32,833 nucleotides of DNA from Rhodothermaceae bacterium (GCA_024643915.1 JAHEMB010000001.1:1-32833); one strand, 5' to 3'; positions 4,438 through 32,762 are shown, counted from the stretch's first letter. Program-made: numbers and translations. Notes: a model not told the origin generated them from the sequence alone.

Positions 4438-4580
4438 GAGTCGGAGAGCCGAAGAAATAATGAGACGAGGAACCGAGGAATCGAGGAATCGAAGACAGGA
4501 CTTTCCTGCATAGCACTTCGATTCTTCGTCTCTTCGATTCCTCGATTCACCAAATCCCCGGCTCTCCGACTCCCCGACTC
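4438..4580. repeat. Octamer-periodic imperfect palindrome (57-nt arms, 21-nt loop); same family as 15029-15139
   Basis: Left arm is consecutive 8-mers GAGTCGGA GAGCCGAA GAAATAAT GAGACGAG GAACCGAG GAATCGAG GAATCGAA. Right arm is CTTCGATT CTTCGTCT CTTCGATT CCTCGATT CACCAAAT CCCCGGCT CTCCGACT CCCCGACT. Arms 4438-4494 and 4516-4572 are 44/57 complementary without gaps, including a perfect 14-bp outer clamp. Confidence 0.85.
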
Positions 4581-4585
4581 AAAAA

Positions 4586-5806
4586 CTACCGTTTGAGCTG
4601 TACGAGTTCTTGCAACAGCTCGTCGGAGGTGGTGATGACGCGGGCGGAAGCCTGGTAGCCGCGCTGCGTCACGATCATATCGGTGAATTCGGTCGCCAGG
4701 TCCACGTTGCCCATCTCGAGGGCACCCGAGACGACGTTGGCGCTGACTTCGCTGCCGGCCCTGCCCACGACGAGTTCTCCGGCAGCGGCGGTGACGCCGT
4801 AGAGGTTCTGGCCGAGCTGCTCCAACCCGTTCGGGTTGTTGACGTCACCCACGGCGAGCTGGAAGGCCGCCTCGCGCTGGCCGTTGGAGAAGTTGAGGTA
4901 GAGCGTGCCCTCGGCGTCGAAGCTGTAGCCCATCATCTCGCCCGCGCCGTAGCCATCCTGAGAGTGGATACTGATCGTGGTCGAGCCGCTGTATTGCGTC
5001 AGGCTCGACACGTCGATCTTGAAGCTGCCCGAGGTGACGTAGTTCGGATCCCAGTCGAGCGAGATCTCGGGCGGGGTATCCATCCGCCCCTCCGTGTTGA
5101 ATGTCATCGAGCCAGAGGCGGCGGCGAAGGGCGGAGGGGTGGCGTCGCCCTGGTAGGCCACGTCATACGACCACTCGTTTTCGGCTGTCTTGGTGAAGGT
5201 GATGAGGGCGGTATGGGTGCGCCCCTGCTCGTCGTAAACCACGGCCGTCATGGGAGAGACGTCCCCCACCTCAGCATCGGCCGAGAGGTTGCCGCCTGAG
5301 AGGGCGTTTTCGGAGAAGCGCGGCGGGCCGGTCATCTCAGGGTCGATCTGCACGTCGCGCAGGGTGCCCGTATCCACGTTGCCGTCGCGGTCGTAGCTCC
5401 AGCCCTGCACGTTGAGGCCGCCGGCGGTGACGAGCCTGCCCTCGCCGTCGAACATGAAGTTGCCGGCCCGCGTGAGCATGTTGCCCTCGCCGCCGTTCAC
5501 CACGAAGAAGCCGTCGCCGTCGAGGGAGAGGTCGGTGGCGAGGTTGGTGTAGGTGAACGCGCCCTGCGCCCAGTTCTGGTCGATGGAGCCGACGGACACG
5601 CCCTGCCCCACCACGGCGGGGTTGATGCCGTTGCCGCCGCTGAGCCGGCTCACGCCGATCATCTGCTGCCCGAAGACCTCCTGAAAGGCCGCGCGGCTGC
5701 GCTTGAAGGCGACCGTGTTGACGTTCGCAATGTTGTTGCCGATGATGTCCATGCGGACCTGCTGGCTACGTAGTCCGCTGATGCCGGTGTAAAGGGATCG
5801 CATCAT
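4586..5806 (-). CDS. flgE: Flagellar hook protein FlgE
   Basis: 406 aa. N-terminal rod/hook motif (MMRSLYTGISGLRSQQVRMDIIGNNIANVNTVAFK) and C-terminal motif (LEMGNVDLATEFTDMIVTQRGYQASARVITTSDELLQELVQLKR). Strong AGGAGG Shine-Dalgarno site 9 nt upstream of the ATG. Confidence 0.92.
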   Translation of the reverse strand: MMRSLYTGISGLRSQQVRMDIIGNNIANVNTVAFKRSRAAFQEVFGQQMIGVSRLSGGNGINPAVVGQGVSVGSIDQNWAQGAFTYTNLATDLSLDGDGFFVVNGGEGNMLTRAGNFMFDGEGRLVTAGGLNVQGWSYDRDGNVDTGTLRDVQIDPEMTGPPRFSENALSGGNLSADAEVGDVSPMTAVVYDEQGRTHTALITFTKTAENEWSYDVAYQGDATPPPFAAASGSMTFNTEGRMDTPPEISLDWDPNYVTSGSFKIDVSSLTQYSGSTTISIHSQDGYGAGEMMGYSFDAEGTLYLNFSNGQREAAFQLAVGDVNNPNGLEQLGQNLYGVTAAAGELVVGRAGSEVSANVVSGALEMGNVDLATEFTDMIVTQRGYQASARVITTSDELLQELVQLKR

Positions 5807-5919
5807 GGTGTTTTTCCTCCTTCTGGATGTTGGCCCGCAGCGTCGGTCGTTCGGCTGCGGCCGGCGTCCCTTTCCGGGTCCCGCCGGGTGTTGCTGGGTA
5901 TGGTGATGGTGATGTTGGG

Positions 5920-6297
5920 TTAAAGCAGCATCGCGCTGTCGATGTCGGTAAAGGCGCGGTGCTGCATTTCCTGCTGCCCGAGGGCCGTCACCACCGTGCG
6001 GTTGGGCACGTTGACGACGAAGGCGGCGTCGGCGCGAAGCAAGAGGGCGTTCTGCGCGCCCTTGCCCGCTAGGTGCTCCATGGCGTCGCTGATCGACTGC
6101 CTGGCGTCATCGTCGAAGGCGATGTGGCGCGCTGCGAGGCGCTGCTGCGCGTGGGCCGACAGGCGGACGCCCCCGGCCTGCCGCAGCACGTCGTCGAAGG
6201 CGGCGCCGTTGCGCGGGGGCGTACCCGGCGCGGGCCGTGCGGTCGGCGCTACCGGGCGACCCGGATCGACGCGCGCGGCGAGTTGGCGAACATTCAT
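5920..6297 (-). CDS. Small 'flagellar operon protein' found between flgD and flgE (resembles the TIGR02530 family, from memory)
   Basis: 125 aa. Pattern F..VL......RLSAHAQQRLAARHIAF...........AMEHLAGKGAQNALLL..DAAFVVNVPNRTVVTA..........FTDIDSAML plus position between flgD and flgE, as in Firmicutes, Thermotogae and spirochaetes. Confidence 0.6.
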   Translation of the reverse strand: MNVRQLAARVDPGRPVAPTARPAPGTPPRNGAAFDDVLRQAGGVRLSAHAQQRLAARHIAFDDDARQSISDAMEHLAGKGAQNALLLRADAAFVVNVPNRTVVTALGQQEMQHRAFTDIDSAMLL

Positions 6298-6313
6298 GGC
6301 TTCCTCCGGGGAT

Positions 6314-7000
6314 CTAATCGGCGAGGATGCTCAGAATGTCCTCCAGGCCGATGGTGGAGTTGCCCAGGCGGAACGATACCCGCCCGTCTTCGAACACCAC
6401 CTGTTCGATGCGGCCGCGGAGGTACGCCCCGGCCTGCACCGGCTCGCCCTGCGGATCGGTCGCTTCCACGCTGAACGAGTAGGAGCCGTCGGGCAGGGTC
6501 GCGCCGCTGTCGTCGGCACCGTCCCACATGATTTCGTGCCGGCCCTCGGCGAGGGCGCCGGGCGTGAGGGTGCGGACGACCTGCCCCGCCTCATTCCGGA
6601 TGACGACCTTCACGTCGGTGGCGGCGCCGTCGAGCTTGAAGTGCAGCGGCCCTCCTTCACCGCCGTGCAGGCCCACCGTATGGCCGCGCGCCTCCACCGT
6701 TTTGCCCACCATGCCGGCGGCCATGCTGCTGTTGATGCCGTGCATGAGTTGGGCGTTCACGCCCGCGCTCGCTTCGAGCATGCTGCCGATGTGCATGAGC
6801 TGCTCGACGGAGGAGAACTGCGCCAGCTGCGCCGCGAACTCCTGCCCGTCCATCGGATTGAGCGGGTCCTGGTTGCTGAGCTGGGTCACCAGCATCAGCA
6901 TGAAGTCGTCCTTCCCCAGCGCCGTCGGGTCCGTACCCGATGGATCGCCGAAGCCGCCTGGTGGCGGGGGGGAGAAGGTTGGGTTGAAGGATGAGATCAT
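6314..7000 (-). CDS. flgD: Flagellar hook-capping/assembly protein FlgD
   Basis: 228 aa. Canonical FlgD N-terminal motif (LGKDDFMLMLVTQLSNQDPLNPMDGQEFAAQLAQFSSVEQL) followed by a beta-rich FlgD Ig-like region. Confidence 0.9.
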   Translation of the reverse strand: MISSFNPTFSPPPPGGFGDPSGTDPTALGKDDFMLMLVTQLSNQDPLNPMDGQEFAAQLAQFSSVEQLMHIGSMLEASAGVNAQLMHGINSSMAAGMVGKTVEARGHTVGLHGGEGGPLHFKLDGAATDVKVVIRNEAGQVVRTLTPGALAEGRHEIMWDGADDSGATLPDGSYSFSVEATDPQGEPVQAGAYLRGRIEQVVFEDGRVSFRLGNSTIGLEDILSILAD

Positions 7001-7027
7001 GATCTCTCGGGTTTGAGTGAAACGGAT

Positions 7028-7049
7028 GAAAAGGCGCTACTTGAGCGCC
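7028..7049 (-). terminator. Short hairpin plus T4 between fliK and flgD (possible weak attenuator)
   Basis: The minus strand reads GGCGCT-caagt-AGCGCC-TTTTC: a 6-bp GC stem, a 5-nt loop and four T. Weak, and internal to an operon. Confidence 0.25.
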
Positions 7050-7070
7050 GAGTGAACCAAAGGACGGGCC

Positions 7071-8957: not shown

Positions 8958-8961
8958 CGCT

Positions 8962-10040: not shown

Positions 10041-10043
10041 CGT

Positions 10044-11369: not shown

Positions 11370-11371
11370 TC

Positions 11372-11455
11372 TTGAAGCTCCAAGTTCCAGATCCCAAATT
11401 CCAAAGTCTCTTAAAGCACCCTTTGGAGCTTGGAATATGGGACTTGGACTTTTTA
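11372..11455. repeat. Heptamer-periodic imperfect palindrome filling the fliH-fliI spacer
   Basis: Left array is TCCAAGT TCCAGAT CCCAAAT TCCAAAG (11379-11406). A 14-nt spacer follows. Right array is CTTTGGA GCTTGGA ATATGGG ACTTGGA (11421-11448). Arms are 23/28 complementary without gaps. The right end touches the fliH stop and the left end touches the GGAG in front of the fliI ATG. Confidence 0.8.
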
Positions 11456-12280: not shown

Positions 12281-12324
12281 GTGGATTGCGGATTGTTATT
12301 TCGGCCTCTCGTCCATTCTCGAAA

Positions 12325-13368: not shown

Positions 13369-13373
13369 CGTGG

Positions 13374-14984: not shown

Positions 14985-15028
14985 TTATTCGGAAAGTAGT
15001 GCTGGCTGGGAGCCATGGCGCCGCGAGA

Positions 15029-15139
15029 GGGGGAAGGGAGCACGAGAATCGAGGAGCCGAAGAAACGAGGAATCGAAGATCGGCTGATTCAAAGTTCTCG
15101 TCGATTCGTCGTCTCGTCGTTTCTTCGATTCATTCCCCC
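15029..15139. repeat. Octamer-periodic imperfect palindrome; second copy of the 4438-4580 family
   Basis: Left array is GGGGGAAG GGAGCACG AGAATCGA GGAGCCGA AGAAACGA GGAATCGA AGATCGG. Right array is TTCTCGTC GATTCGTC GTCTCGTC GTTTCTTC GATTCATT CCCCC. It shares the strings GAGCCGAAGAAA and CGAGGAATCGAAGA with the element at 4438-4580. It starts 2 nt after the fliE stop codon. Confidence 0.85.
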
Positions 15140-15141
15140 AC

Positions 15142-15459: not shown

Positions 15460-15553
15460 TGTTTTTCGGTTTTTAGAAGGGATGCTTCGTCGTGGCGGTG
15501 GCGCCCAGCATCAATCTTTGAGCATTGTTAACTGCTCATTATCCATTGGCGAG

Positions 15554-15841: not shown

Positions 15842-15851
15842 GGCAGCCGGG

Positions 15852-16352: not shown

Positions 16353-16384
16353 CTTGGTTGGCCGGTTGTCTATTTGTTCTTAGC

Positions 16385-16405
16385 CTGAAACGTGAAACGC
16401 GAAAC
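16385..16405. repeat. Three tandem heptamers CTGAAAC GTGAAAC GCGAAAC in the flgB-flgC spacer
   Basis: Read directly from the sequence. Period exactly 7. No clear inverted partner. Confidence 0.8.
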
Positions 16406-16410
16406 CATGC

Positions 16411-16749
16411 CTAGCCGGTGCGGCCGGTGATGGCGGTGCGCATGGCCTGGAAGTGGCCATGCAGGGCGCGGGCGGCGAGCTGCGTCCGCATCTGCGTGTC
16501 GGCCAACTCCATCAGTTCGTCTTCGAGGAGCGGCGCTCGCTCCTCCACCTCGACGCGGGCCGATACACCCGCTCCAGCTTCAGGGCCACCCTGGCCCAGC
16601 CGCGCTGCCTGAAGCGAATCCTCGAACGAAACGGAAAGGCGCTGGTAGCCAGGCGTATCGAGGTTGGAGATGTTTCCGGCGAGGGCCTGCAAGCGCATCG
16701 TGTAGGCTTGCATGGCGCGGGTGAGCAGGTCGAGCTTCGGGGTGTCCAT
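16411..16749 (-). CDS. flgB: Flagellar basal-body rod protein FlgB
   Basis: 112 aa. The N-terminal rod motif (RLQALAGNISNLDTPGYQR) is typical of FlgB. First gene of the cluster. Confidence 0.88.
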   Translation of the reverse strand: MDTPKLDLLTRAMQAYTMRLQALAGNISNLDTPGYQRLSVSFEDSLQAARLGQGGPEAGAGVSARVEVEERAPLLEDELMELADTQMRTQLAARALHGHFQAMRTAITGRTG

Positions 16750-16793
16750 CGGCAGGGTCGGGAGCAGAGGGAGTTTCTTCTGGCTGTCCGAAG

Positions 16794-16809
16794 GTCAACC
16801 TCCGTGCCA
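16794..16809 (-). promoter_or_regulatory. Candidate sigma-54 promoter for the flgB operon (imperfect -12)
   Basis: The minus strand reads TGGCACGGAGGTTGAC: a perfect TGGCAC -24 box, correct spacing, and -12 TTGA instead of TTGC. It lies ~45 nt upstream of the flgB ATG and faces away from the divergent kinase/activator pair. Confidence 0.45.
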
Positions 16810-17068
16810 GCCGCACTGGTGCTCGTTTGAGACGGAAAAGCGGGGCGCTGCCGGAAAAATCACGGTGTGCGGAGGAAATTCTTGCCGCGCCGAACGCGAG
16901 TTGCACGGGGGGGACGGGGAACAGAAAAAGTGTGACGGCAACGCAGGCGGCGATCCTGCCTTTTAGCATGGGAAGGATCACGGGGAAGGCACGCGATTTG
17001 ACCGTCAGGTCGCCACTGCCTGACTCATCAGATCTCCACTTCACAATGGGGGCGCCCTCCTGAACCCT

Positions 17069-17782
17069 ATGCACCGATCCTACACAATGCCGGCAACCGA
17101 GCTGCGTTGCGCCGGCGAGCAGCCGGGAGAAGACGCAGTAAAGCACCTGGCCGGTGTGCTCTCACACCGCATCCGCAACGCCCTTGCTGGCCTCATCGGC
17201 TTCACCGATTTGCTCATCGGCACGCTCGCCACGCCCGAGCAGCGCGACCTCGCCCTGCGCATCCTCGAAAGCACCTCGCACATCGACGACATCGTGTTGG
17301 ATTTGCAGCGCTACAGCGAGCCGCTACGGCCTGTGCCCCGGCGGGTGCCGGTCCGCGCCTTGGTGGAAGAGGTGAGCGCCGGGCTCGACGAGGCCGAGCG
17401 AGCCCGGTTGTCCTGTCACGTGGCGCTTGATGTGCCCCTGCTGCTTTACGCCGACCCGCTCCTGCTGCGCGAGGCCCTGCTGATCCTGCTGCAAAACGCC
17501 TTCGAAGCCGAACCGCCTGACGGCCTCGTCCGGCTCCGCCTAGAGGCGAGCAACGAACAAGTCAGTTTCGAGGTCTGGAACGCTGCTGCCATCGATGGGC
17601 CGAGCGATCAGGCGCTTGCCCCGTTCTTCACCACGAAGGCTGACAAGCTCGGCCTGGGCCTGCCGATGGCCTACCGCATTGCTGCGGCGCATGGCGGGCA
17701 GGTGGCTGTGGAATCGGAGAAGGAAAGGGGAACGTGCGTCCGGCTGGGGCTGCCGAATGTTACGAAAATGTTAAGCGGATAA
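17069..17782 (+). CDS. Soluble sensor-less histidine kinase (DHp + HATPase only), FlgS/FleS-like by context
   Basis: 237 aa, no TM or sensor domain. H-box LSHRIRNALAGLIGFTDLL, N-box LLILLQNAFEA, F/G2 region PFFTTKADKLGLGLPMA. The G1 position reads VWNAAAI instead of DxGxG. ATG 17087 is an alternative start. Confidence 0.8.
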   Translation: MHRSYTMPATELRCAGEQPGEDAVKHLAGVLSHRIRNALAGLIGFTDLLIGTLATPEQRDLALRILESTSHIDDIVLDLQRYSEPLRPVPRRVPVRALVEEVSAGLDEAERARLSCHVALDVPLLLYADPLLLREALLILLQNAFEAEPPDGLVRLRLEASNEQVSFEVWNAAAIDGPSDQALAPFFTTKADKLGLGLPMAYRIAAAHGGQVAVESEKERGTCVRLGLPNVTKMLSG

Positions 17783-19777: not shown

Positions 19778-19845
19778 GGCAACTCGTCGGTTGGGTTCCG
19801 TGCGGGAGGGCGGAAGCGTCCCGTCCTCCTCCACGCCATTAAGTA

Positions 19846-20211
19846 TCAGCCGCGCACATGGTCGCTTAAAATATTCGTGGGCGAGGCCGGGTTGTACCGG
19901 TGATGCGCTTGCCGCTGGTGCGCCAGCTTTTCCAAGGCGCCGGACAGCTGCCGTTCGTGTGTGATGAGGGCGCCCTGGAGCGCCTTCTGCTGTTCGAGCA
20001 GGGCCGTGGCGATGCGCTCCCACGACGCGTCCGGCTGATCGGGGCGAGGGTAGGTGCGCAGGCGCTCGACGAGCAGGCGGCGCTCGTGCAACAGGCAGGC
20101 AGCGGTCCCCAGGTCGTCGCTTGCCAGCGCGTCGTGCAGGCGCTCGCCGACGGCCAGGAGTTGTCCGAGCAGCGGGGCTTCGTGGGTTGCGGGGTTGCTA
20201 GTGTTGGGCAT
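19846..20211 (-). CDS. Hypothetical helical protein, possible FlgN/FliT-like flagellar export chaperone
   Basis: 121 aa, predicted all-helical (LLGQLLAVGERLHDALASDDLGTAACLLHERRLLVERL...LLEQQKALQGAL). Sits between fliD and flgM, where flgN or fliT usually lies. The functional call is by context only. Confidence 0.4.
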   Translation of the reverse strand: MPNTSNPATHEAPLLGQLLAVGERLHDALASDDLGTAACLLHERRLLVERLRTYPRPDQPDASWERIATALLEQQKALQGALITHERQLSGALEKLAHQRQAHHRYNPASPTNILSDHVRG

Positions 20212-20236
20212 GGTGCTTCCGGTTAAGTCAAGTTAG

Positions 20237-22072
20237 CTAAAATCCGCCGAAGAAGCCGCTCACAATCTGCTGCTGCCCCTCGAAGGAGGCAATCATCTCT
20301 TGCAGGTGGGCAAACTGTTCGCGGAGTTGGTTCTCACGGCGTAGGAGGCGTTCGTCCCAGCCGCCGATGCGGTCGTCGAGGCGGCGGATGCGCTGGTCGA
20401 TGATGCCCTCGCGGCTGTCGATCAGGCCCTCGACGCCGAGGAAAGTGTCGAGGCGGGTGGTGAGGCGCGTGGCGAGGCCGTCGGCGTTGCCGAAGAGCCG
20501 CTGCACGGCGTCAGCGTCTTCTTCAACCTTTGCGGTGAGGGCTTCCGGGTCGGTCAGTTCGAGCGTGCCGTCACCTTTGATTGTCAGGCCGAGGTCGCTG
20601 AGGGCGAAGCCGGCGGGCTGGCCCGCCACAGGGCTGACGACGGCGTTGCGCATCGCGTAGCGGAGCCCGGTGATGGTGCGCTCCCCGGCGAAGTCGCCCC
20701 GCGTGCCGGCCTCGGCATCTACCTGCGACTTCTGGAAGATGAAGTCGAGCACCTCGTTGTATTTCTCGACGAAGCTTTCCACTTCCACGCGCGCCGCCTC
20801 CTCGTCGATGCCCACGGTGAAGGACTCTTCGGCCTCGCTCACCTGCCGCAGTTCGACGGTGACGCCTTCGAGGGCGTCGGTGACGCTGTTGGTGCTGCGG
20901 TAGTGCGTCAGGCCGTCGAGGATGAAGACGCTGTTGAGGGCGGAGTCGATTTCGCTCGTTCCCACGTCCACCATCATCCCGCCACGTGTGTCGCCGCCGG
21001 TTTGGGTGGCGTCGGCGCCGTAGACGGGCTCGGCCATGGCCTGGAGGCCGAGCGTGCCGAGGGCGTTGCCGCCGGTGATCTGGAGGGAAGACGAAGCGCC
21101 GGTCGCATTCGTCTCGAACCTGAGGGTGTCGCCGTCCACGCCCACCGTCACGTCGTTGCCAACGGCGTCGCCGATGGCGGCGGCCAGGTCGTCGATGGTG
21201 TTGTAAGTGCCTTTGGCAATCTGCGCGTTGACGGTGGCGCCGTTGATCGTCAGATCCAGGTTGCGGTTGTTGTTCTCGATCTGGAAAGGGCCGCTGATGG
21301 AACTTCCCGTGACCGAAGCGGGCGTAGCCGGCGTGGACCCGGCGCCCGCAACGACGGCTTGGCGATCCACCTCCAAGAGGGCCAGCAGGCCGCCGGAAGA
21401 GTCGGTGAAGGCGAGGCGGTTGGCGTAGCCGGAGGCGCCGCTACGGAGCGAGAGACGGGCCGTGTCGCTCGTCTCGTGCAGCACCGAGGCGGCGACGCGC
21501 TCGGTCGAGCGGATGGTGCCGGCTTCCGCCGCGGTGCGCATGGCGTCGTCGATAGCCGTGGCGATTTCGTCGAGGATCTCTCCGTTCGAAGCGCCCGTGG
21601 GATCCACCGTCACGCTGATGTGCTCGCGGCGCTGCGGGTCGGCGTCGGTGGGGGCGGCCACCTCCATGCTGAAGGTCTGCGCGCCGTTGGCGTCGAAGAA
21701 ACTGCGGAGGTCGGCGGCGTTGGTGTCGAGGCGCTGGCTCACACGGTGGTCGGCCCGCGCGAGGCGCTGTATGTTGAGGGTGTGGGTGCCGAGGGCGGCG
21801 CTGGCGCCGGCGCTCGCGCGGAAGGCGGCGGCTTCATCCTGGGTCACGGCGCGGACCGAGAAGGGGTTGCTGAAAGTGTCGGTGAACCCCTTGAGCTGGG
21901 TGTGGAGGGCTGAGAGCTTGCTGTCGAACATACCCAACACATCCTTGAACCGCTGCTGCTCGGCCTTGCGTGCTTGCAGGGCCTGCTGCGGCTGACGCTC
22001 CAGCCGGATGATCTGGGCGATCAGTTGCTCGTAAGGATCGTTGGCGTTGAGGGCAGAGAGAGGGCTCAACAT
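20237..22072 (-). CDS. fliD: Flagellar filament cap protein FliD (HAP2)
   Basis: 611 aa. N-terminal FliD motif (YEQLIAQIIRLERQPQQALQARKAEQQ...LSALHTQLKGF). C-terminal FliD domain with heptad tail (RIRRLDDRIGGWDERLLRRENQLREQFAHLQEMI). Confidence 0.9.
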   Translation of the reverse strand: MLSPLSALNANDPYEQLIAQIIRLERQPQQALQARKAEQQRFKDVLGMFDSKLSALHTQLKGFTDTFSNPFSVRAVTQDEAAAFRASAGASAALGTHTLNIQRLARADHRVSQRLDTNAADLRSFFDANGAQTFSMEVAAPTDADPQRREHISVTVDPTGASNGEILDEIATAIDDAMRTAAEAGTIRSTERVAASVLHETSDTARLSLRSGASGYANRLAFTDSSGGLLALLEVDRQAVVAGAGSTPATPASVTGSSISGPFQIENNNRNLDLTINGATVNAQIAKGTYNTIDDLAAAIGDAVGNDVTVGVDGDTLRFETNATGASSSLQITGGNALGTLGLQAMAEPVYGADATQTGGDTRGGMMVDVGTSEIDSALNSVFILDGLTHYRSTNSVTDALEGVTVELRQVSEAEESFTVGIDEEAARVEVESFVEKYNEVLDFIFQKSQVDAEAGTRGDFAGERTITGLRYAMRNAVVSPVAGQPAGFALSDLGLTIKGDGTLELTDPEALTAKVEEDADAVQRLFGNADGLATRLTTRLDTFLGVEGLIDSREGIIDQRIRRLDDRIGGWDERLLRRENQLREQFAHLQEMIASFEGQQQIVSGFFGGF

Positions 22073-22091
22073 GATCGTTCAGCAGGTTGGT

Positions 22092-22472
22092 TCAGGCAGC
22101 CTTGGCGCACAGCACGCCCTGTTTCCAGGCATCGCGCAGGCCGCCGAGGAGTTCGCCTACAGAGGAGAGATCGCCGTTGATGCTCTGGCGGAGGCAGAAG
22201 TCGTAGAGGGCATGGAGGCGCGTGGCCATCTCGCCGCCCCGTGCGAAGTCGAGGCCGCCGATGAGTTCGACGAGGACGGCGCGCAGCTTGGCCCGGTCGT
22301 CCCGGTGGCAGGCCGCCACGCCCAGGTCGAAGAGCTTGGCGACGAGCTGCTCGGGCGAGGCGGACCGGACGGCCTGCTGCTGGTACTGGCGCATGCGAAG
22401 GGCCGAGGGCATGGGATCCGTGATCGTCTGGTTGCGGAAGGTTTTTCCCGAGCCGAAGGCGGGCGGCAGCAT
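22092..22472 (-). CDS. fliS: Flagellin-specific chaperone FliS
   Basis: 126 aa. YQQQAVRSASPEQLVAKLFD...LVELIGGLDFARGGEMATRLHALYDFCLRQSI is typical FliS. Internal ATGs at 22412 and 22394 are alternative starts. Confidence 0.85.
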   Translation of the reverse strand: MLPPAFGSGKTFRNQTITDPMPSALRMRQYQQQAVRSASPEQLVAKLFDLGVAACHRDDRAKLRAVLVELIGGLDFARGGEMATRLHALYDFCLRQSINGDLSSVGELLGGLRDAWKQGVLCAKAA

Positions 22473-22505
22473 CTTCCTGCCCCGTTCCGGTCGGCGTCAC
22501 GGCCT

Positions 22506-22534
22506 GTATCGTTGAGGCGCCGGCCACCTTAAAT
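22506..22534 (-). promoter_or_regulatory. Sigma-28 (FliA)-type promoter for fliS-fliD-ORF-flgM
   Basis: The minus strand reads ATTTAAGG-N13-AACGATACAGGC. The CGATA -10 core and TTAA -35 fit the TAAA-N15-GCCGATAA class. Both boxes and the spacer length are identical to the fliC promoter at 23581-23609. Confidence 0.7.
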
Positions 22535-22583
22535 CGGCTTTTTGATACCGAAAAGATGTTTTTGACGGGCTCACGGAAAGGGC

Positions 22584-22614
22584 GCAGCCCCCCTGCTCAA
22601 GGCAGGGAGGCTGC
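22584..22614 (-). terminator. Candidate intrinsic terminator of fliC
   Basis: The minus-strand RNA reads GCAGCCUCCCUGC-cuuga-GCAGGGGGGCUGC followed by GCCCUUU. That is a 13-bp stem with one G-U pair. It lies 75 nt after the fliC stop and just upstream of the fliS promoter. The U tract is short. Confidence 0.45.
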
Positions 22615-22688
22615 TCCGGGCGGGGAGGCCCGGTCACCGGGGGATTCGTACTGCGAAGGTCGTGCCCGGTGAAAGGTTCGGTTCAGGA

Positions 22689-23519: not shown

Positions 23520-23580
23520 GGCGGGTACCCCGTGTAGTTTGATGTTGGGTTGTGCGGTCGTTTTTTCTCGTCCGCCGCCT

Positions 23581-23609
23581 GTATCGTTAGCCTCCGGAGG
23601 GCCTTAAAT
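23581..23609 (-). promoter_or_regulatory. Sigma-28 (FliA)-type promoter for fliC
   Basis: The minus strand reads ATTTAAGG-N13-AACGATACAGGC. The -10 box lies ~62 nt upstream of the fliC ATG. It duplicates the motif at 22506-22534. Confidence 0.75.
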
Positions 23610-23623
23610 AGGAGAGGGAAAAA

Positions 23624-23687
23624 GATGAGGGGAGAATGGGGGAATGGACGAGAGGAAGAGTGGAAGAGTGGGGGAGAGGAGGAATGG
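23624..23687. repeat. Eight tandem purine octamers, all ending in GG, immediately upstream of the fliC promoter
   Basis: GATGAGGG GAGAATGG GGGAATGG ACGAGAGG AAGAGTGG AAGAGTGG GGGAGAGG AGGAATGG, read directly. Period exactly 8. The minus strand is almost pure pyrimidine here. Confidence 0.8.
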
Positions 23688-23756
23688 GCGAACCGCATCC
23701 CTCCTGGTCGCGCTTTCTCCACAACCTATCGCCGGCTCTCCGGCTCTCGCGTCGGC

Positions 23757-26210: not shown

Positions 26211-26220
26211 ACAGTTTGAT

Positions 26221-26360
26221 CAATTAGCAATTAGCAATGACGAATGAACAATGAGGGAAGCACACGACAAACATCAATCAGCCGGTATGAAATCGACACG
26301 GCTGACACACGCTCCTCTGTAACATTGCTCCTTGCTCATTCCTGATTGTTTTCGTCGTTC
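26221..26360. repeat. Heptamer-periodic inverted arrays with a nested small hairpin
   Basis: Left array is CAATTAG CAATTAG CAATGAC GAATGAA CAATGAG GGAAGCA (26221-26262). Right array is TGCTCCT TGCTCAT TCCTGAT TGTTTTC GTCGTTC (26326-26360). The inner ~15 nt pair (AATGAGGGAAGCA with TGCTCCTTGCTCATT). The nested hairpin CAGCCG-N14-CGGCTG lies at 26279-26304. Confidence 0.7.
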
Positions 26361-26546
26361 GTGCCCGCTCTAACGCGAAAGGGATGCCGCAGGCGGGCTT
26401 ACCAGCAAGAAAACGAAAACGTAGCAGGATCTTGTCCGTGGTTCGTAGTCAGAGGGCCGATGTGGTATTTATCCGCTTCCTTCCGCGCTGAAGAGAATCA
26501 ACGAACTACAGCGCGCGAAGCACGCCTCCGCCGTACGACGAATCAA

Positions 26547-29500
26547 TCAGAAGAAGAAGCCGAAGGAGAGGTCGAAAAGCGTCGATTCGGGGGAGCGAGC
26601 GACGGTGGCGGTGACGGCAATCTGGTGGAAGGGAGTGATCCACACGCCACCGCCATAGCCCTGGTGCCAGACGTCCGAGCGTTCGTCCCCCCCCCACACG
26701 CGCCCGTTGTCGAGGAAAACGAGCAAGCCGCCCTCGCCCCGTGTGATGTAGGCGTTGAAGTCAACGAGCGTGGCGCGCAGTTCCACGTTGGTGAAGAAGC
26801 TGTGGCGGCCCGCGAAGCGCGTCCGACGGTAGCCGCGCAGGTTCTCCAGCCCGCCGAGCGTGTTGGCCTGGTAGAACTCGAAGTCGCCCACATTCGTGGC
26901 GCCGCCCACGCGGATGCCAAGGGTCGTTTGCCTGCGCCGGTTGAACGTGTAGAAGTAGCTGAGCTCGGCGCGGAGGCGAGCCAGCAGGGCGTCGGTGTTG
27001 CGCACCCCCGCGCTCAGGATGGTCTCCGCCAGGAAGCGTCCCCCGGCCTGCGTGTTGGCCAGAGTGTCCGTCCCATCGACTTGGTAAAAGGTCTGGAAGC
27101 CGGCGAAATACTTGTCGGTGAAGTCGTCGGGAGTAAAGCGCGTGGGGAAGGCCTCCTCGCGTGGCCCCACGTCGACGAAGGAGAAGTAGGGGCCGAGTGT
27201 AGCCGAACTGAAGAGGCCCCACTCGCGGTGCAGGGTGGGCGAGAGCGTAAACTGCTGAATCTGCGAGCGGAAGAAGTTGCGGTCCGATAAGTCGGTGCCG
27301 TTGCCCAGCCCATAGAACTGGCTGAACTGATAGACGCTGTACCAGGTGGCGTCGAGCCAGGCGTCCCAATCACCCCAGAACTGGATGATCTGGCCCTTAT
27401 AGTGGACGTTGTACGCGTTCGTGCGGAAGGCGTAGTTGGCCGCCAACTCGTGCGAGGCCGCGTACGGCGACTTGCGGAAGCCGGCCCGCTCCATGCGCAG
27501 CCCGCCGCCCAGAAAAACGCCGTCGTCTGTGTTATAGCCAAAAAAGCTGGTCGGGGAGAAGTTCGAGGTCTCGAAGCGGAGCATCTGGTAAGTGTTGTGG
27601 CCGGGCTCGTCGGAGCGGTGCACGTCGGTCTCCGGCCCCACCTGCCAGGTGTTGCCGAGCTCGCTGTCGTAAAAAACGGTCATCTCCTTGCCGCCCTTCA
27701 CGTCGGACTCGTCGATGTAGCGGTCCTCTCCCTCGCCGCCGATGGCGCGCACGAGCAGGCCGCGCCGGGCGGTACCCGTCACCTCGAACTGGTCGTCGCC
27801 CGCTAGCCCGTAGAGCCGCACCTCTTTGGTTTCGTCGTGGAAGAAAGTGCGGCGGAAAAGTTCGCGCTGCACCTCGCCCTCCTTGTTCGTCTTATAGACC
27901 ACCACCAGGGTCGAGTCGTCGTTCAGGCGAGTGACCTCGAACAACTCGTGCTTGTCGCTCCCTATCACATCGACGATGCGGGCCAGCAGTTTGTCGTAAT
28001 ACTGGGCCGCCACGTCGGGCAACTTCTCGCGGCGGGCTTTCAGAAAGCCAATGGTGCGGGCCGCTTCTTCTTCCTGGATCGGCTCCGGCCATTGCCCGAT
28101 GGCCGCCTCAATGGCCTCGTCCGTGAGGCTGTCGCGCAGGGACTCAGCAATCTCGATCCAGTCTTTTCGGGTGAGGGACGAGGTGAAGCGGCGGTCCAGG
28201 GCAGCCCCATTGTAATTGAGGCCGTAGAGGTTGCCGTAGTCCTCGCTGAAGTTGCTGTAGCGGCGGTGCTCGGGGCGCCCGGCCAGGCGCACGAGGAGGG
28301 CCAGCGGGCCGTCGAATTTGAAGAAGGCGAAGTCTCGGTCGCGGGGGATGGGACGGTAGACCTTGCCCTGGGTGCGGGCCTCACCTTCGAGGGTGGGGTC
28401 GAGTTCGTATGGCTCGAATTCGGCCCAGCGCCACTGGTCCTTGTGGCGGTCCCAGTCGCCGATGAACATGTCGAAGAGGCGGGCGCGGGCCAGGGCGCGC
28501 TCGTCCATGCGGAAGTCGTTGTCCTCCTGGATTTTCTCGAAGAGGCGGGGCGAGCCGATCACGTTGGTCGCGTTGCCGAAGCGGGCCTCGTCGGACTGGT
28601 CCTCGTCGGGCCGTGTCTCGAAAAGGGCAAACACCCCGGCGAACTCGTCGCGGTAGGGGCCGAGGCGGGGGTCGTCGGGGACGTAGACGAGGCGGGGGGC
28701 GGTGTGATAGATGCCGGCGGCCTCGGCCAGGAGCGGCACGGCGAGGGCGGCAAACGGGTTGATGGCTGAGATCTGGTCGCGGACGATGTCCTGCGCGAGC
28801 GTCTTGCGGAGGAAGACGGGGACGGACGCGACGGGGTCCTTGTCCACGGTACGGAGGACGTACTGATCGCCGTCGGCGCCCTGGAGGCGGAGCGACTTGG
28901 TCTGGAGGCCGCCGCCGCGCTTGATCGGCGTGAGCCCCCCCGCCGTCTTCGCCAGGTCTATGATGGGCACCTCGACCGGGGTGCTCCAGATTTTCCGATA
29001 GCGCTCGCCCAGGAAGAGTTTCTTGAGGGCGTTGGCCTCGTAGTGCTCGCTGGGCACCACGGTCGTCATACCCAGGCTGTGGAAGGCGTAGGGGGTGCCG
29101 TCGGTGGGAGCGGCCGGCGTCTCGCCATTGGTTTGCGACGGCGCGCCGTCGGTGGAAGCGATGACGTTGGTGGTGTCGAGGGGCGCAGGGTCGGGCACGG
29201 GCGCCTCGTCAACGGGCGGCTCGTAGGCGACGAGGGGGCGGTTGCCTTTCTCCAGGCGCATCTCGTAAACCACCTTGCCCGTTGCGCCGTCGCCTTCGGG
29301 CTGCAAGAACTGGAGCCACACGGAGCCGTCGGTGAAATAGCGCAGCACCCCGAACCCCTTGCCTTCATCGGCGAAGGCCGCGCCGTTGCCCTTCGCGACG
29401 AAGCTGCTCTTGCTGCCGGCGCCGCTGACGATGTAGTGCTGATCCTTGAAGGGGAAGTACTGGAGGTTGTGGTCGTGCCCGGCGGCGTAAACGAGGCCCT

Positions 29501-30374
29501 CGTGCTGCTCGAAAACGGCGAGCAGGTTGTTCCGCATCGTGCGGTACTTCAGGTTCGAGAGGTCCTGCGGCGTGCCGAGGTAGCGGCGCGTCATCATGTA
29601 AAGTGGGAAGCGGCGGCGCGCTTCGCGGTAGCGGCCTCCGTGCGAGCCGTTGGTGAACAACGGATGGTGCGCCACCACCACCACCTTCTTATCCCGGTTG
29701 CGGTACAGAATGTCCGACAGTTCGATGAGCACGCTGCTCTCTTCTTCGAGCAGGTACTGCCCGGTGTCGCCGTAGGTCTTGCGGTCTTCGAGCCACCATT
29801 GGGTGTCGAGGGCGATGAGTAGGAGCGAGTCGGCCAGGGGGATCTCGACGGGGCCGGGAAAAGCGTTGTCCGGCACGAACGTGTCGCCCCGGTCGAGGAC
29901 GCTTTCGACGAAATCTTCCTGCCGCATAAGGGTCGTGGGCACCCCGCCAAAGCCTTCGCCGCCCCAGTCGTGGTTGCCGGGGACGAAGACGACGCGGCCC
30001 TTGAAATCCTCGACCGTCTTGAGCTGTACGAGGATGCGGCGCTCGGCCTCCTCCCGGAAGGGGCTGGAGGTGGGCGGCAGGCCGCTGGGGTAGATGTTGT
30101 CCCCGAGGAAGACGACGCCGCTGTTCGCGCCTGCGCTGTCGAGATGGGTTTTGAGGAGCTTCAGGGCCGGCTCCATCTCGCCCGGTTGGGGGGCGCCGGC
30201 ATCGCCGACGAGGTAGAGGCTGAAGGCGAGCGTGCTGTCCGGCGGGCGGACGGCGTTCTCGTCCAGCACCGGTAAGAGGAATCGACCGGTGGGTCCACAG
30301 GCGGCCAGCCCCAGGGACAGGAACAGCAGCCCTACGAGGGCAGAGGGAAAGCGGTGGAGGCGTACGTCGTGCAT
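26547..30374 (-). CDS. Outer-membrane lipoprotein: calcineurin-like metallophosphoesterase + kinase-like middle region + Omp85/surface-antigen beta-barrel
   Basis: 1275 aa. Signal peptide with lipobox (LLFLSLGLAAC). Metallophosphoesterase motifs GDAG, GDNIY, GNHDW, AHHP, GHDH. Middle region with KRGGGLQTKSLRL ... GDWDRHKDQW ... RDRDFAF. C-terminal barrel (TLGGLENLRGYR...GGGVWITP...LFDLSFGFFF) ends in Phe. Confidence 0.8.
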   Translation of the reverse strand: MHDVRLHRFPSALVGLLFLSLGLAACGPTGRFLLPVLDENAVRPPDSTLAFSLYLVGDAGAPQPGEMEPALKLLKTHLDSAGANSGVVFLGDNIYPSGLPPTSSPFREEAERRILVQLKTVEDFKGRVVFVPGNHDWGGEGFGGVPTTLMRQEDFVESVLDRGDTFVPDNAFPGPVEIPLADSLLLIALDTQWWLEDRKTYGDTGQYLLEEESSVLIELSDILYRNRDKKVVVVAHHPLFTNGSHGGRYREARRRFPLYMMTRRYLGTPQDLSNLKYRTMRNNLLAVFEQHEGLVYAAGHDHNLQYFPFKDQHYIVSGAGSKSSFVAKGNGAAFADEGKGFGVLRYFTDGSVWLQFLQPEGDGATGKVVYEMRLEKGNRPLVAYEPPVDEAPVPDPAPLDTTNVIASTDGAPSQTNGETPAAPTDGTPYAFHSLGMTTVVPSEHYEANALKKLFLGERYRKIWSTPVEVPIIDLAKTAGGLTPIKRGGGLQTKSLRLQGADGDQYVLRTVDKDPVASVPVFLRKTLAQDIVRDQISAINPFAALAVPLLAEAAGIYHTAPRLVYVPDDPRLGPYRDEFAGVFALFETRPDEDQSDEARFGNATNVIGSPRLFEKIQEDNDFRMDERALARARLFDMFIGDWDRHKDQWRWAEFEPYELDPTLEGEARTQGKVYRPIPRDRDFAFFKFDGPLALLVRLAGRPEHRRYSNFSEDYGNLYGLNYNGAALDRRFTSSLTRKDWIEIAESLRDSLTDEAIEAAIGQWPEPIQEEEAARTIGFLKARREKLPDVAAQYYDKLLARIVDVIGSDKHELFEVTRLNDDSTLVVVYKTNKEGEVQRELFRRTFFHDETKEVRLYGLAGDDQFEVTGTARRGLLVRAIGGEGEDRYIDESDVKGGKEMTVFYDSELGNTWQVGPETDVHRSDEPGHNTYQMLRFETSNFSPTSFFGYNTDDGVFLGGGLRMERAGFRKSPYAASHELAANYAFRTNAYNVHYKGQIIQFWGDWDAWLDATWYSVYQFSQFYGLGNGTDLSDRNFFRSQIQQFTLSPTLHREWGLFSSATLGPYFSFVDVGPREEAFPTRFTPDDFTDKYFAGFQTFYQVDGTDTLANTQAGGRFLAETILSAGVRNTDALLARLRAELSYFYTFNRRRQTTLGIRVGGATNVGDFEFYQANTLGGLENLRGYRRTRFAGRHSFFTNVELRATLVDFNAYITRGEGGLLVFLDNGRVWGGDERSDVWHQGYGGGVWITPFHQIAVTATVARSPESTLFDLSFGFFF

Positions 30375-30589
30375 TGTGCGTAAGAGAGCAACCGGAATCT
30401 TCGGTTTATCTCGGGCCGTTAGTGAAACGCTGGAGGGGTGGTGCTAACCCACAGAGTCGCCGCGCTACTGCCCGTTATTTGGCAAAAAGTAGCAATATTG
30501 TCCGTAGTTTGCAGGAAATCCGCAGCCGGAGGCGAACGCCGGTAGCGGCTTCCGGCGTTTGCAAAGAAGAGCAACTATCCGGCCCACCC

Positions 30590-31825
30590 ATGATGAGCGA
30601 CGCCCCCGATACGGCAGAAGCCGTCCGCACAGCAGCAGCCCCGGCCGCCACCGTCCGTGTAGAAGACGTACTGCCCGAAGCGGCGGCTTTCGTGTACGAG
30701 CTTCTCAGCCAGAAGCTCCCCGATACGTTGCTCTTTCACTCCTACCAGCACACCGTCGATGTTGTGGAGGTGGTGCTGAAAATCGCACGGAAAGACGACC
30801 GGCCGGACGAAGAGCGCGACCTGGTGGCCCTCGCCGCCTGGTTCCACGATACCGGCTTTACCGAAACCTATGAGGGGCACGAGGAGGTCAGCGTCCGTAT
30901 TGCCACCACGTTTCTGCGCGAGCGCGGCCTGCCTGACAAGACGATCGATCGCGTGGCCGACCTGATCCGCTCGACCCACCCCGACCGCGAGCCCCGCGAC
31001 GGCGCCGAGGCGCTGCTTCACGACGCCGACTATGCCCACCTCGGCCGCAAGAAGTTCTTCGAGCGGGCCGAGCGCCTGCGCCGCGAGTGGGAACGGCACC
31101 TGGGCCGCACCTACTCCGAGCGGGAATGGACTGAGCTTCAACTCAGGTTCCTCCATTCCGTCAGCTACCTGACCGACTACGGAAGCAAGAAGTACGGCAA
31201 GCGCAAGCGCAAGAACGCCATCAAGCTGCAACACGAGCTGGCCGCCCGCCTCGACGCTGAGAAGCCGCTACCCCCCTCCGACGACCTAGGCCGGCCCAAG
31301 CGTGGCATCGAGACGCTCTTCCGCACAGGCTATCGCAATCACATCAACCTCAGTTCCATCGCCGACGCGAAGGCCAACATCATGATCTCGATCAACGCGA
31401 TCCTGATGTCGATCATCGTCTCGTTCATCTCCACCCGCCTGCAGGCCGATACGTGGCTGCTCGCCCCGGCTGCCGCCCTCCTCGTTTCCTCCCTGGCCTC
31501 CATCATCTTTGCCATCCTCAGCGCCCGCCCCGAGGTAACCAGTAAGATCTTCACCATCGAGGACGTGATGGAGCGGAAAGGCAACATCCTTTTCTTCGGC
31601 AACTTCGTCAATATGTCGCCGGCTGACTTCCGAGTGGGCATGCGGCAGATCATGGACGATTATGACCGGCTTTACGACAGCATGATCAACGATCTCTACT
31701 CCCTTGGCGAGGTGCTCTCGCGGAAGTACCGGCTGCTTTATATCTCCTACACTGTTTTCATGGCGGGCCTGGTCATCACGGTTTTGCTCTTCCTCTTCTT
31801 CTTCTTTGTGATGCCAAATTTATAG
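30590..31825 (+). CDS. HD-domain phosphohydrolase fused to a Pycsar-effector-like (DUF5706-like) three-helix membrane domain
   Basis: The ORF-track start 30374 is TTG and begins inside the divergent gene. ATG 30590 (MMSDAPD) gives 411 aa. HD motifs FHSYQHTVDV, LAAWFHDTGF, LLHDADYAHLG. C-terminal GIETLFRTGYRNHINLSSIADAKANIMISINAILMSIIVSF plus two more TM helices and NILFFGNF. Confidence 0.75.
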   Translation: MMSDAPDTAEAVRTAAAPAATVRVEDVLPEAAAFVYELLSQKLPDTLLFHSYQHTVDVVEVVLKIARKDDRPDEERDLVALAAWFHDTGFTETYEGHEEVSVRIATTFLRERGLPDKTIDRVADLIRSTHPDREPRDGAEALLHDADYAHLGRKKFFERAERLRREWERHLGRTYSEREWTELQLRFLHSVSYLTDYGSKKYGKRKRKNAIKLQHELAARLDAEKPLPPSDDLGRPKRGIETLFRTGYRNHINLSSIADAKANIMISINAILMSIIVSFISTRLQADTWLLAPAAALLVSSLASIIFAILSARPEVTSKIFTIEDVMERKGNILFFGNFVNMSPADFRVGMRQIMDDYDRLYDSMINDLYSLGEVLSRKYRLLYISYTVFMAGLVITVLLFLFFFFVMPNL

Positions 31826-32151
31826 CGGCGCCGAGAAGGGAAAGCGTCTGGAAGCGCCAGGAGGTACGCTCCTGCCCGTTTGCGCCCACGGAAACGAAGC
31901 GCAGGGTGCGGGCGTCGAAGGCCAGGAGCAGCCAAAAGTTGAGGCGGGGGCTTTCCCTGATTGCCGCTTTTGTCGTACCTTGCCGGGGCGGTTAACGGGT
32001 GGTTCCGCGTTGTTTTTGGGTGAGGACAAACAGAAAAAGGTGACGCCTTCCCAGCACGTCGCGTTAACATAGGGAACGTCAGACCGGTGGCGCAGCCGCG
32101 CGGAGACTTCGTACGCGGTGTTTTGTTCGTCCGCAGTCGGTGGGGGGCGTC

Positions 32152-32652
32152 ATGAAAGGGCACGTGCTCGTTCTCAACCAGGATTACAGCGCGCTGACGA
32201 TCTGTAGCGTGCAGCGGGCCGTCGTGCTCGTTTTGCTCCGGAAAGCGGAGCTGGTCGAGGCCCATCCGGAGCGGTTCGTGCGCTCGCCTAGTGCGCGGTT
32301 CCCCTGGCCCAGCATCGTTCGGTTGAAGATGTACGCGCGGGTGCCGTACAAGCGCATCCTGCTCTCGCGCAAAAATATCCTGCGGCGCGACCGCTTTCGG
32401 TGCCAGTATTGCGGCAGCCGCGACCGTCTCACGGTCGATCACGTCCTGCCCAAGTCGCGCGGCGGCCTCGACACGTGGGAGAACCTGGTGGCGGCCTGCA
32501 CCGTGTGCAACAACCGGAAAGGTAACCACACCCCCGAGGAGGCAAGGATGCGCCTCCGCCGCAAACCATTTCGCCCAAGCCACGTTATGTTCATCCGCGA
32601 CCTAATTGGGACGGTGGACGAGACGTGGAAGCCGTATCTGTTTTTGCATTAG
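32152..32652 (+). CDS. Small HNH endonuclease
   Basis: The ORF-track start 32140 is GTG. ATG 32152 gives MKGHVLVLNQDYSALTICSVQRAVVL. HNH core CQYCGSRDRLTVDHVLPKSRGGLDTWENLVAACTVCNNRKGNHTPEEA. Confidence 0.85.
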   Translation: MKGHVLVLNQDYSALTICSVQRAVVLVLLRKAELVEAHPERFVRSPSARFPWPSIVRLKMYARVPYKRILLSRKNILRRDRFRCQYCGSRDRLTVDHVLPKSRGGLDTWENLVAACTVCNNRKGNHTPEEARMRLRRKPFRPSHVMFIRDLIGTVDETWKPYLFLH

Positions 32653-32705
32653 CTTTCAGCCGTCAGCGATCAGCTTTTTTGTTTTTTGGCTGACGGCTGA
32701 AAGCT
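32651..32705. terminator. Perfect 17-bp hairpin with T-rich 21-nt loop, overlapping the HNH stop codon
   Basis: AGCTTTCAGCCGTCAGC (32651-32667) and GCTGACGGCTGAAAGCT (32689-32705) are exact reverse complements. The loop is GATCAGCTTTTTTGTTTTTTG. No T tract follows the stem on either strand, so it is not a canonical intrinsic terminator. Confidence 0.5.
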
Positions 32706-32762
32706 GACCGCTTCCCCCTCCCGGTTCGTCGCCCTTTCCTCAGCACGGACCTTTTCTCTGCG

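Follow-up and report, generated by a model that had tools for sequence, protein, structure and literature searches.

Why should the spacers of a bacterial flagellar gene cluster consist of tandem copies of a seven- or eight-letter word, commonly facing an approximate reverse complement of themselves? The question is raised by a whole NCBI contig of 32,833 nt (hereafter the window), part of a metagenome-assembled genome (MAG) from the Rhodothermales that carries a flagellar cluster read mainly from the minus strand. An earlier note, made from the sequence alone, had listed nine such sites. We observe convergent word arrays that form long imperfect hairpins directly after stop codons. Our preferred reading, to which we give a probability somewhat below one half (about 0.45), is that these are degenerate 7/8-nt simple sequence repeat (SSR) arrays of the heptamer class, made by slippage, whose convergent pairs give hairpins that act as 3' stem-loops.

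The periodicity was assessed on 15 pooled spacers (~2.6 kb), whose lagged self-match autocorrelation was compared with 500 dinucleotide-preserving shuffles, the control that the earlier note had proposed. At lags 7 and 8 the pooled spacers reach z = 6.0 and z = 6.5, respectively, and 0 of the 500 shuffles attain either value; lags 5, 6, 9 and 10 remain flat, with z below 1.6. Coding DNA of the window has 3n periodicity only, z being negative at lags 7 and 8. The central claim of periodic words is thus borne out. Taken singly, six of the nine listed sites are significant: at period 8 the spacers 4291-4585 (z 6.8), 14985-15141 (z 6.1) and 23520-23756 (z 5.0), and at period 7 the spacers 11370-11452 (z 4.9), 26211-26546 (z 5.7) and 16353-16410 (z 3.7). 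The remaining three are marginal and not significant alone, namely 32584-32833 (z 2.8), 15460-15553 (z 2.5) and 12281-12324 (z 2.2), which hold the sites at 32651, 15520 and 12283.

A strict detector, which demands at least 19 of 24 lagged matches and yields about one false hit per Mb, found five arrays in the window, four of period 8 and one of period 7, all intergenic, with no other periods and 0.0 arrays in shuffles; Tandem Repeats Finder (TRF) agrees with it there. The periodicity had been called strict, which overstates it: the words are degenerate, their copies matching at 72-94% (TRF). The spacers are indeed richer in AT than the genes, their GC content being 0.43-0.59 against ~0.66. 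Over all the loci described below, TRF at score 30 was too noisy, periods 7 and 8 equalling those in shuffles, and the strict lag-match detector was used instead.

Hairpin status was defined site by site from an inverted-arm search and from fold energies compared with those of shuffles (Table 1). Inverted arms had been announced for five spacers. Four sites form clear, stable hairpins (A, B, C and a 17-bp hairpin near the end of the window); a further pairing (26235/26328) is weaker, and the array at 23624-23687 has no convincing one. That the word vocabulary differs between sites holds only in part: hairpins A and B (4438-4580 and 15029-15139) share a word family and are collinear. It had further been supposed that internally repetitive arms would pair in several near-isoenergetic registers. 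Alternative registers do exist, and shifted ones are also seen in hairpin A, but a forced shift by one word is 4-19 kcal/mol less stable than the preferred register, which refutes the supposition.

Are such hairpins peculiar to this contig? We fetched 132 FliF-centred loci, mapped the proteins of the window onto them and found synteny conserved. Inverted arrays of 7-8-nt words likewise make up many orthologous fliE-fliF spacers, and the words differ by genome, examples being GGTTTAA, CGATTTG, GATCCTC, GCGAATA, TTAATGG, GTGGATGT and GGAGGGAT. Applied to 85 Rhodothermales loci (1.15 Mb), the strict detector returned, among arrays whose period is not a multiple of three (non-3n), 17 of period 7 against 1.5 expected, 6 of period 14, 4 of period 8 and 3 of period 16, with essentially none of periods 10 and 11. 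Of 237 orthologous Rhodothermales flagellar spacers of at least 50 nt, 28 exceed z = 3.5, compared with 2 after shuffling; nine of the 28 peak at lag 7, five at lag 8, two at lag 14 and four at lag 15. A cultured relative, Rubrivirga litoralis F394 (L030), has arrays between fliE and fliF and between flgD and flgE. Array density in the window is about eight times that of the relatives, and its preference for period 8 is unusual. In spacers of these kinds some relatives have longer units too: two adjacent 13-nt arrays of ~6 copies each (L041, 15268-15454), 14-nt arrays (L034, 9870-9999 and 1590-1668) and an 18-nt array of 3 copies in a fliE-fliF spacer (L044). The array phenomenon is therefore not limited to 7-8 nt.

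Four regularities in these loci favour the reading we prefer. First, an inverted partner, counted at a match of at least 19/24 within 130 nt, accompanies 16 of 45 non-3n arrays from the window, the Rhodothermales and other loci. Second, the hairpin base in the 26 strongly folded spacers lies at a median of 2.5 nt from the upstream stop codon and 8.5 nt from the next start; the hairpin is closer to the stop than to the start in 22 of them, and its base is 0-7 nt from the stop in 24. Third, a G-rich 5' arm precedes a C-rich 3' arm in 22 of 27 structured spacers (22 vs 5, p = 0.0015), a property that reads alike on either strand; hairpin C is the one clear C-arm-first case in the window. Fourth, strong folding is seen in 17% of fliE-fliF spacers against 2% of fliF-fliG and 2% of fliG-fliH spacers, a comparison weakened by the fact that the limits of the latter two include some coding sequence.

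In the window itself, the claim that the arrays start within a few nucleotides of stop codons survives with an exception at 26217. The 17-bp hairpin at first sight lies upstream of a minus-strand open reading frame (ORF), but GC content by codon position gives no signal for that ORF. It does give one for the plus-strand ORF 32140-32652 (GC1/2/3, the GC content at the three codon positions, = 0.62/0.43/0.83), which also has HNH-like motifs (CxxC, DH, N). With the gene map corrected in this way at 32140-32652, every array but that at 26217 begins no more than 8 nt from a stop codon. The minus-strand ORF 31747-32583 (278 aa; GC1/2/3 = 0.71/0.53/0.62) is probably spurious.

We propose that replication slippage would create and resize the arrays in non-coding DNA downstream of stop codons. 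Where two arrays of one word stand convergently, the G-rich arm first, the DNA strand or its transcript may fold into a long imperfect hairpin. Because the words within an arm are alike, an arm that gains or loses a word can still pair; hairpins that tolerate such changes can grow, shrink and drift fast and yet stay hairpins. Hairpins of repetitive extragenic palindromic (REP) sequences and bacterial interspersed mosaic elements (BIMEs) are known to stabilise mRNA 3' ends and to aid Rho termination. By this analogy, and from its position, the hairpin would most likely serve as the 3' stem-loop of the upstream cistron, ending or insulating the unit and shielding its 3' end from exonucleases, as REP/BIME hairpins do for operons of enterobacteria.

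Comparison between genomes supports slippage as the probable origin. Two related loci whose fliF genes are 86% identical (L033 and L087) have GGTTTAA/CCTTGAA words in common, and one 3' arm carries an extra block of 25 nt, about three and a half words, which is just what slippage predicts. They form the only informative related pair among the fetched loci, and two sequences give no covariation power. This block and the lineage-wide heptamer bias directly support the slippage component that the earlier note had listed among possible causes. The same two genomes reuse their word in the fliG-fliH and flgD-flgE spacers. Such recurrence of a word family in different spacers of one genome is not explained by slippage alone, and counts against the reading we prefer.

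A strong rival, if a rather doubtful one in our estimate, grants the slippage and denies the function. The arrays would be a neutral or mildly selfish by-product of 7-nt-biased slippage wherever constraint is relaxed, with one arm copied into the other when the template is switched at a quasi-palindrome. Much of what weighs against a 3' stem-loop role falls on its side. No sequence conservation of the arrays between species was found in the compared loci, and their distribution is sporadic: strongly folded spacers number only 26 of 342 (7.6%), and many relatives have fliE-fliF spacers of 13-50 nt that lack a hairpin. Some arrays have no convincing inverted partner, for example 23624-23687 and 16385-16405. 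Two further points count against the preferred reading: the arms of hairpin A are not mirrored, since the GAGACGA variant is word 1 in one arm and word 3 in the other, and, unlike the other sites, 26217-26348 is start-proximal, 7 nt from the start codon of a GAF gene. The stop-proximal position could also merely reflect constraint on the downstream promoter and leader. The difference of one 25-nt word block between related genomes and the generality of the heptamer bias in prokaryotes fit a by-product too, as does the failure to find a function for the Xanthomonas analogues described below (PMC4692102).

Several properties are harder to reconcile with mere relaxation. About one third of the arrays have an inverted partner, far above chance; the 22:5 excess of the G-arm-first order, the hairpin bases 0-7 nt from stops in 24 of 26 spacers, the preference for the fliE-fliF junction and the return of the same word at separate sites of one genome all stand against a by-product. 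So does extreme stability: hairpin A reaches -89 kcal/mol, and DNA does not normally keep palindromes of this kind stably unless they are tolerated or selected for.

At the RNA level the tests do not favour the 3' stem-loop reading. The 26 structured spacers have no sense-strand excess of G:U pairs (106/1134 sense vs 137/1166 antisense), as the neutral by-product would have it, and the antisense strand folds better in 16 of them, the sense strand in 10. No U-tract follows these hairpins and no T-run does so in the window, where a terminator scan gave 9 terminator-like sites against 9.2 expected and called none of the arrays. Across the spacers of the window and of loci L003-L122, sense strands are mostly C-rich and G-poor, and in 284 of 339 it is the antisense strand that gives the better fold. 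No family among the Rfam 15 covariance models reached its gathering score for the arrays; the sole match is a mir-577 hairpin look-alike at 4466-4545, with 30.5 bits against a threshold of 100.

The earlier note knew of no described repeat class of this design. One exists. Rehm et al. (2015) reported in Xanthomonas the heptamer GGGAATC, or (GGGANTN)n, at ~185 sites, mostly of four units (PMC4692102). These repeats are 89-93% intergenic, with mean distances of 28 nt to the upstream ORF and 160 nt to the next ORF downstream, and include 70-75 convergent inverted pairs, "always convergent", that are able to form stem-loops (PMC4692102). They vary between the genomes Xcc and Xac and are transcribed; no regulatory role was found for them (PMC4692102), a precedent that weighs against a functional reading of ours. 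That prokaryotes carry heptanucleotide repeats in excess had been reported already in 2007 (Mrazek, summarised in PMC4679880). Since the anatomy reported by Rehm et al. equals that seen here, the statement that no such class had been described was wrong, and the Rhodothermales arrays are the counterpart of the convergent GGGAATC repeats of Xanthomonas.

The likeness extends to details. Like Xanthomonas GGGAATC and Nostoc GGGGA(C/T)T, the arrays are made of degenerate short words in ~4 units, are intergenic and form convergent pairs with the G-rich arm first; like the Xanthomonas repeats, they lie nearer the end of the upstream ORF and are variable in length and sequence between close relatives. 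They differ in belonging to another phylum and in showing several word families within 33 kb, not one genome-wide word; in the window, moreover, period 8 is as common as 7 and the G-tracts are too short for G-quadruplexes. The commonest word of the window, GAGGAATC, is GGGAATC with one inserted base, but over all 27 arrays the similarity to GGGAATC does not exceed composition-matched chance (p = 0.11).

Heptanucleotides are the most abundant long-unit simple repeats in most genomes, and a contact of ~7 nt with DNA polymerase has been proposed to favour slippage, according to the summary of Mrazek (2007) contained in PMC4679880. With such long simple sequence repeats (LSSRs, 5-11-nt units) and with the short tandemly repeated repetitive (STRR) heptamers of cyanobacteria our arrays have in common non-3n units, restriction to non-coding DNA, a 7-nt preference, a lineage-sporadic occurrence and a proposed slippage origin. 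Their units iterate head to tail (six spacers, z 3.7-6.8), and non-3n periods are excluded from coding DNA. LSSR and STRR arrays are described as direct and often near-perfect, whereas those described here are short (3-5 copies), degenerate and commonly arranged as inverted pairs. Intergenic TAACTGA heptamers are known from Beggiatoaceae, Cyanobacteria and some Bacteroidetes (MacGregor 2015, PMC4679880). These too are intergenic heptamers in 2-6 copies, and our stretch 26217-26255 reads (TAATTGN)n on the sense strand, ending 7 nt before a start codon; however, TAACTGA sets are direct (one inverted among 170), start-proximal and of fixed word, while the present arrays are mostly stop-proximal, inverted and varied. 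The sense (minus) strand of 26211-26260 runs CATTGTT CATTCGT CATTGCT AATTGCT AATTGAT, then 7 nt to the ATG of the GAF gene, and so resembles the TAACTGA/TAATTGA sets near start codons in Beggiatoaceae and some Bacteroidetes.

Like REP sequences, BIMEs and REPINs (REP doublets forming hairpins), the arrays are extragenic and species-specific, and their inverted pairs form long hairpins after genes. A REP unit, however, is an imperfect palindrome of 20-40 nt with a conserved head, present in hundreds of copies and linked to a REP-associated tyrosine transposase (RAYT) (PMC2817692); units in the window are non-palindromic words of 7-8 nt, and palindromy exists only between whole arrays. On this unit anatomy, membership of the REP class and of the miniature transposable elements with inverted repeats (MITEs) was rejected. 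A CRISPR array was rejected too, the repeats being contiguous 7-8-nt words and not 24-48-nt repeats with unique spacers. Intrinsic terminators have a U-tract after a GC-rich stem, whereas the stems here are far longer at 28-62 nt, are interrupted and have no 3' U-tract. In the literature searched we found no description of such repeats in Rhodothermales.

Could the hairpins nevertheless be copies of a small mobile element that is non-autonomous, resembles a REPIN or MITE, is specific to a genome, inserts after stop codons and is periodic as a family trait? Both arms of hairpins A and B match collinearly at ~80%, and the two hairpins have the 12-mer TTTCTTCGGCTC in common. The same word family fills the fliE-fliF spacer of a distant Salinibacteraceae MAG (L019), whose FliF is 56-57% identical, and this locus alone stands out from 11-mer sharing across loci, which otherwise consists mostly of chance matches. 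Arrays of one locus also share more 6-mers than arrays of different loci (0.082 vs 0.023, p = 1e-4), and together with the reuse of words this excess indicates that genomes have partly private vocabularies, much as REP families are species-specific (PMC2817692). A mobile origin seems quite unlikely all the same. The arrays lack clear-cut ends, and neither terminal inverted repeats nor target-site duplications accompany them; their unit is a 7-8-nt non-palindromic word in place of a 20-40-nt palindrome. A profile built from A, B and the L019 spacer detects no additional copy across ~1.6 Mb of related loci, no transposase-like domain occurs among the window ORFs scanned, and the collinearity may only reflect a word consensus. 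Within this 32.8-kb contig one family occurs twice and at least three others once each; the words at other sites are different.

The periodic words could instead be half-sites for a protein that binds DNA or RNA (the sigma-54 activator encoded at 17951-19354, say, or one that recognises GGA in the manner of CsrA), or could adopt a non-B form of DNA, a G-quadruplex or an i-motif, which has been proposed for Xanthomonas. Hairpins A and B do stand at enhancer distance, 15-220 nt upstream of sigma-54-like sites, and the purine arms are rich in GGA; the relation of GAGGAATC to GGGAATC points the same way. We consider this very improbable: the words vary by site and species while the activator is conserved at ~50-67%, and the resemblance to GGGAATC over all arrays is at chance level, as stated above. 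The G-quadruplex version was rejected, since no array carries a canonical motif: no G3+N1-9 x4 match overlaps any of them, and the G-runs of hairpins A and B are only GG. A mobile-element origin and a protein-binding role are both less likely than slippage followed by use as a 3' stem-loop.

A wider reading goes beyond the preferred one and is, in our view, unlikely. On this view convergent, G-arm-first hairpins of genome-specific 7-8-nt words would be a general class that spans phyla, occurring in Xanthomonadales, in Rhodothermales and perhaps in other groups; a single dedicated process would make them, and they would share a role at cistron 3' ends. A candidate process would be synthesis by slippage on the two 3' ends where a fork stalls or a break is healed, in a geometry resembling telomere fusion; another would be an unrecognised mobilisation system. 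As for the role, the C-rich arm might never be exposed to Rho, the G-rich arm being transcribed first on either strand. If this were true, the orientation rule, the hugging of stop codons and the reuse of words would be signatures of a mechanism and not accidents.

Heptamer-class repeats are abundant in several bacterial lineages, and their inverted form has been known since 2015 in Xanthomonas without a function or a mechanism. Finding its anatomy in an unrelated phylum adds many words, octamers, an orientation rule and stem bases 0-7 nt from stops. This speaks for the architecture, and not a G-quadruplex-prone sequence, as the common denominator. Predictions follow for transcript 3' ends, for Rho sensitivity and for dependence on orientation. 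Should the arrays be neutral slippage products, they would still be useful as a marker that evolves fast, and would warn against taking every hairpin for a regulatory element. In practice, the hairpins apparently break short-read assemblies, and they inflate spurious ORF calls.

Table 1. Periodic sites of the window and the neighbouring promoter-like site, with their words, pairing (fold z against shuffles; MFE, minimum free energy) and context.
Feature	Position	Strand	Words or motif	Pairing	Context
Hairpin A	4433-4581		period-8 GAGGAATC-type words at 4459-4500, reverse complement at 4516-4548; outer pair GAGTCGGAGAGCCG / CGGCTCTCCGACTC	arms 4433-4494 / 4516-4577, 62 nt, 76% complementary; MFE -88.6 kcal/mol; fold z = -9.3 (4430-4585)	8 nt past flgE stop (4586); ~85 nt upstream of sigma-54-like site
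Hairpin B	15029-15139		period-8 words GAATCGAG / GAAACGAG / GAGCCGAA	arms 15046-15079 / 15098-15131, 34 nt, 79% complementary; fold z = -3.3 (15025-15141)	2 nt past fliE stop (15142), 45 nt before fliF start
Hairpin C	11372-11455		period-7 TCCAAGT/TCCAGAT/CCCAAAT/TCCAAAG facing CTTTGGA/GCTTGGA/ATATGGG/ACTTGGA	arms 11379-11406 / 11421-11448, 28 nt, 82% complementary; MFE -33.8 kcal/mol; fold z = -4.5 (11370-11452)	fills fliH-fliI spacer; 4 nt past fliH stop, 10 nt before fliI start
17-bp hairpin	32651-32713		AGCTTTCAGCCGTCAGC / GCTGACGGCTGAAAGCT, AGC every 7 nt	arms 32651-32667 / 32689-32705, 17 nt, 100% complementary; fold z -4.9/-8.5 (32640-32725)	overlaps TAG stop of 32140-32652 (+)
Period-7 arrays	26217-26348		CAATTAG/CAATGAC/GAATGAA/CAATGAG (26217-26255) facing CTCATTG-type words (26323-26348)	arms 26235-26255 / 26328-26348, 21 nt, 81% complementary, 72 nt apart, weaker pairing; inner hairpin 26278-26305 between the arrays; fold of 26211-26365 no better than shuffles (z = -1.3)	
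Purine-rich period-8 array	23624-23687		GGGGAATG / GGAAGAGT words; second part of the site (23624-23750) CCGGCTCT x 2 at 23732-23748	only 13-nt arms at 77%; fold z = -0.8 / -2.4 (23600-23756), not significant	6 nt past GAF gene stop; upstream of sigma-28-like fliC promoter
Direct period-7 array	16385-16405		TGAAACG x 2.9; TRF 92% matches	no structure	5 nt past flgB stop
Weak period-7 stretch	15520-15547		mainly small hairpin GAGCA-N8-TGCTC	no inverted repeat of at least 10 nt	~6 nt past orf95 stop
Two-copy repeat	12283-12296		GGATTGC GGATTGT, plain direct repeat; lag-7 z = 2.2	no structure	
Sigma-54-like promoter	4338-4353	-	TGGCAGACGGGTTGCA, one mismatch to TGGCAC-N5-TTGCA		~47 nt upstream of motA start (4290)

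Two further observations concern the sites themselves. The 14-mer GAATGGACGAGAGG at 12305-12318, in the fliG-fliH spacer, equals the reverse complement of 23643-23656 in the array upstream of fliC; by chance one would expect ~0.03 matches of this kind, a hint that spacer segments were exchanged or share an origin. The organism has only one other assembly, a Logan contig of SRR12825416 (L001, 1-1231), which stops exactly at the fliE stop, where hairpin B starts; apparently, short-read assembly breaks at such repeat hairpins.

Placement in the Rhodothermales rests on searches with FliF and FlgE, whose top identities are 61% (whole FliF protein, among genomes) and 64%, respectively; metagenome contigs give whole-protein FliF matches of ~60% at best, and 68% over N-terminal fragments. 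According to Pfam scans the cluster runs fliN, fliM, fliL, motB, motA; flgE, flgD, a 685-aa ORF, fliJ, fliI; fliH, fliG, fliF; fliE, orf95, flgC; flgB. A histidine kinase and a sigma-54 response regulator follow flgB on the plus strand, and next along the window come fliD, flagellin, a GAF protein, a 1275-aa metallophosphoesterase, an HD-PycTM protein and the HNH-like gene.

The site TGGCAGACGGGTTGCA marks the flgE-motA junction, likely a transcription-unit boundary. It is its position that supports it, the count of sigma-54 patterns over the window being not above chance. In the same spacer, relatives have ordinary GC-rich hairpins, one with a T-run, directly after the stop; together with the sigma-54-like site between hairpin A and motA, they indicate that at least some junctions are transcription-unit boundaries. 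Other sigma-54-type sites are a -24/-12 site, TGGCACGGAGGTTGAC, at 16794-16809 (-), 45-50 nt upstream of flgB, and GGCACGCCGGTTGCA upstream of fliF in the fliE-fliF spacers of three relatives (L022, L023 and L026); sites of this type fit the sigma-54-type response regulator encoded at 17951-19354. The genome also employs ordinary terminators, to judge from a conventional small terminator-like hairpin at 7033-7049 (-), GGCGCT-N5-AGCGCC then TTTT, ~20 nt past the stop of the 685-aa ORF.

Codon-position composition bears on other ORFs as well. The long ORFs 22066-22527, 16580-17146, 26346-27290 and 4103-4516 have no GC3 signal (0.49-0.59) and are probably not genes; 5920-6297 (-) and 19846-20211 (-), with GC3 of 0.84-0.87, are probably real, unannotated genes. 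Finally, ORF 30374-31825 (+), directly upstream of the HNH-like gene, encodes an HD domain and a PycTM (Pycsar effector transmembrane) domain (E = 1e-29), and the two genes may constitute a small defence-type island beside the flagellar cluster.

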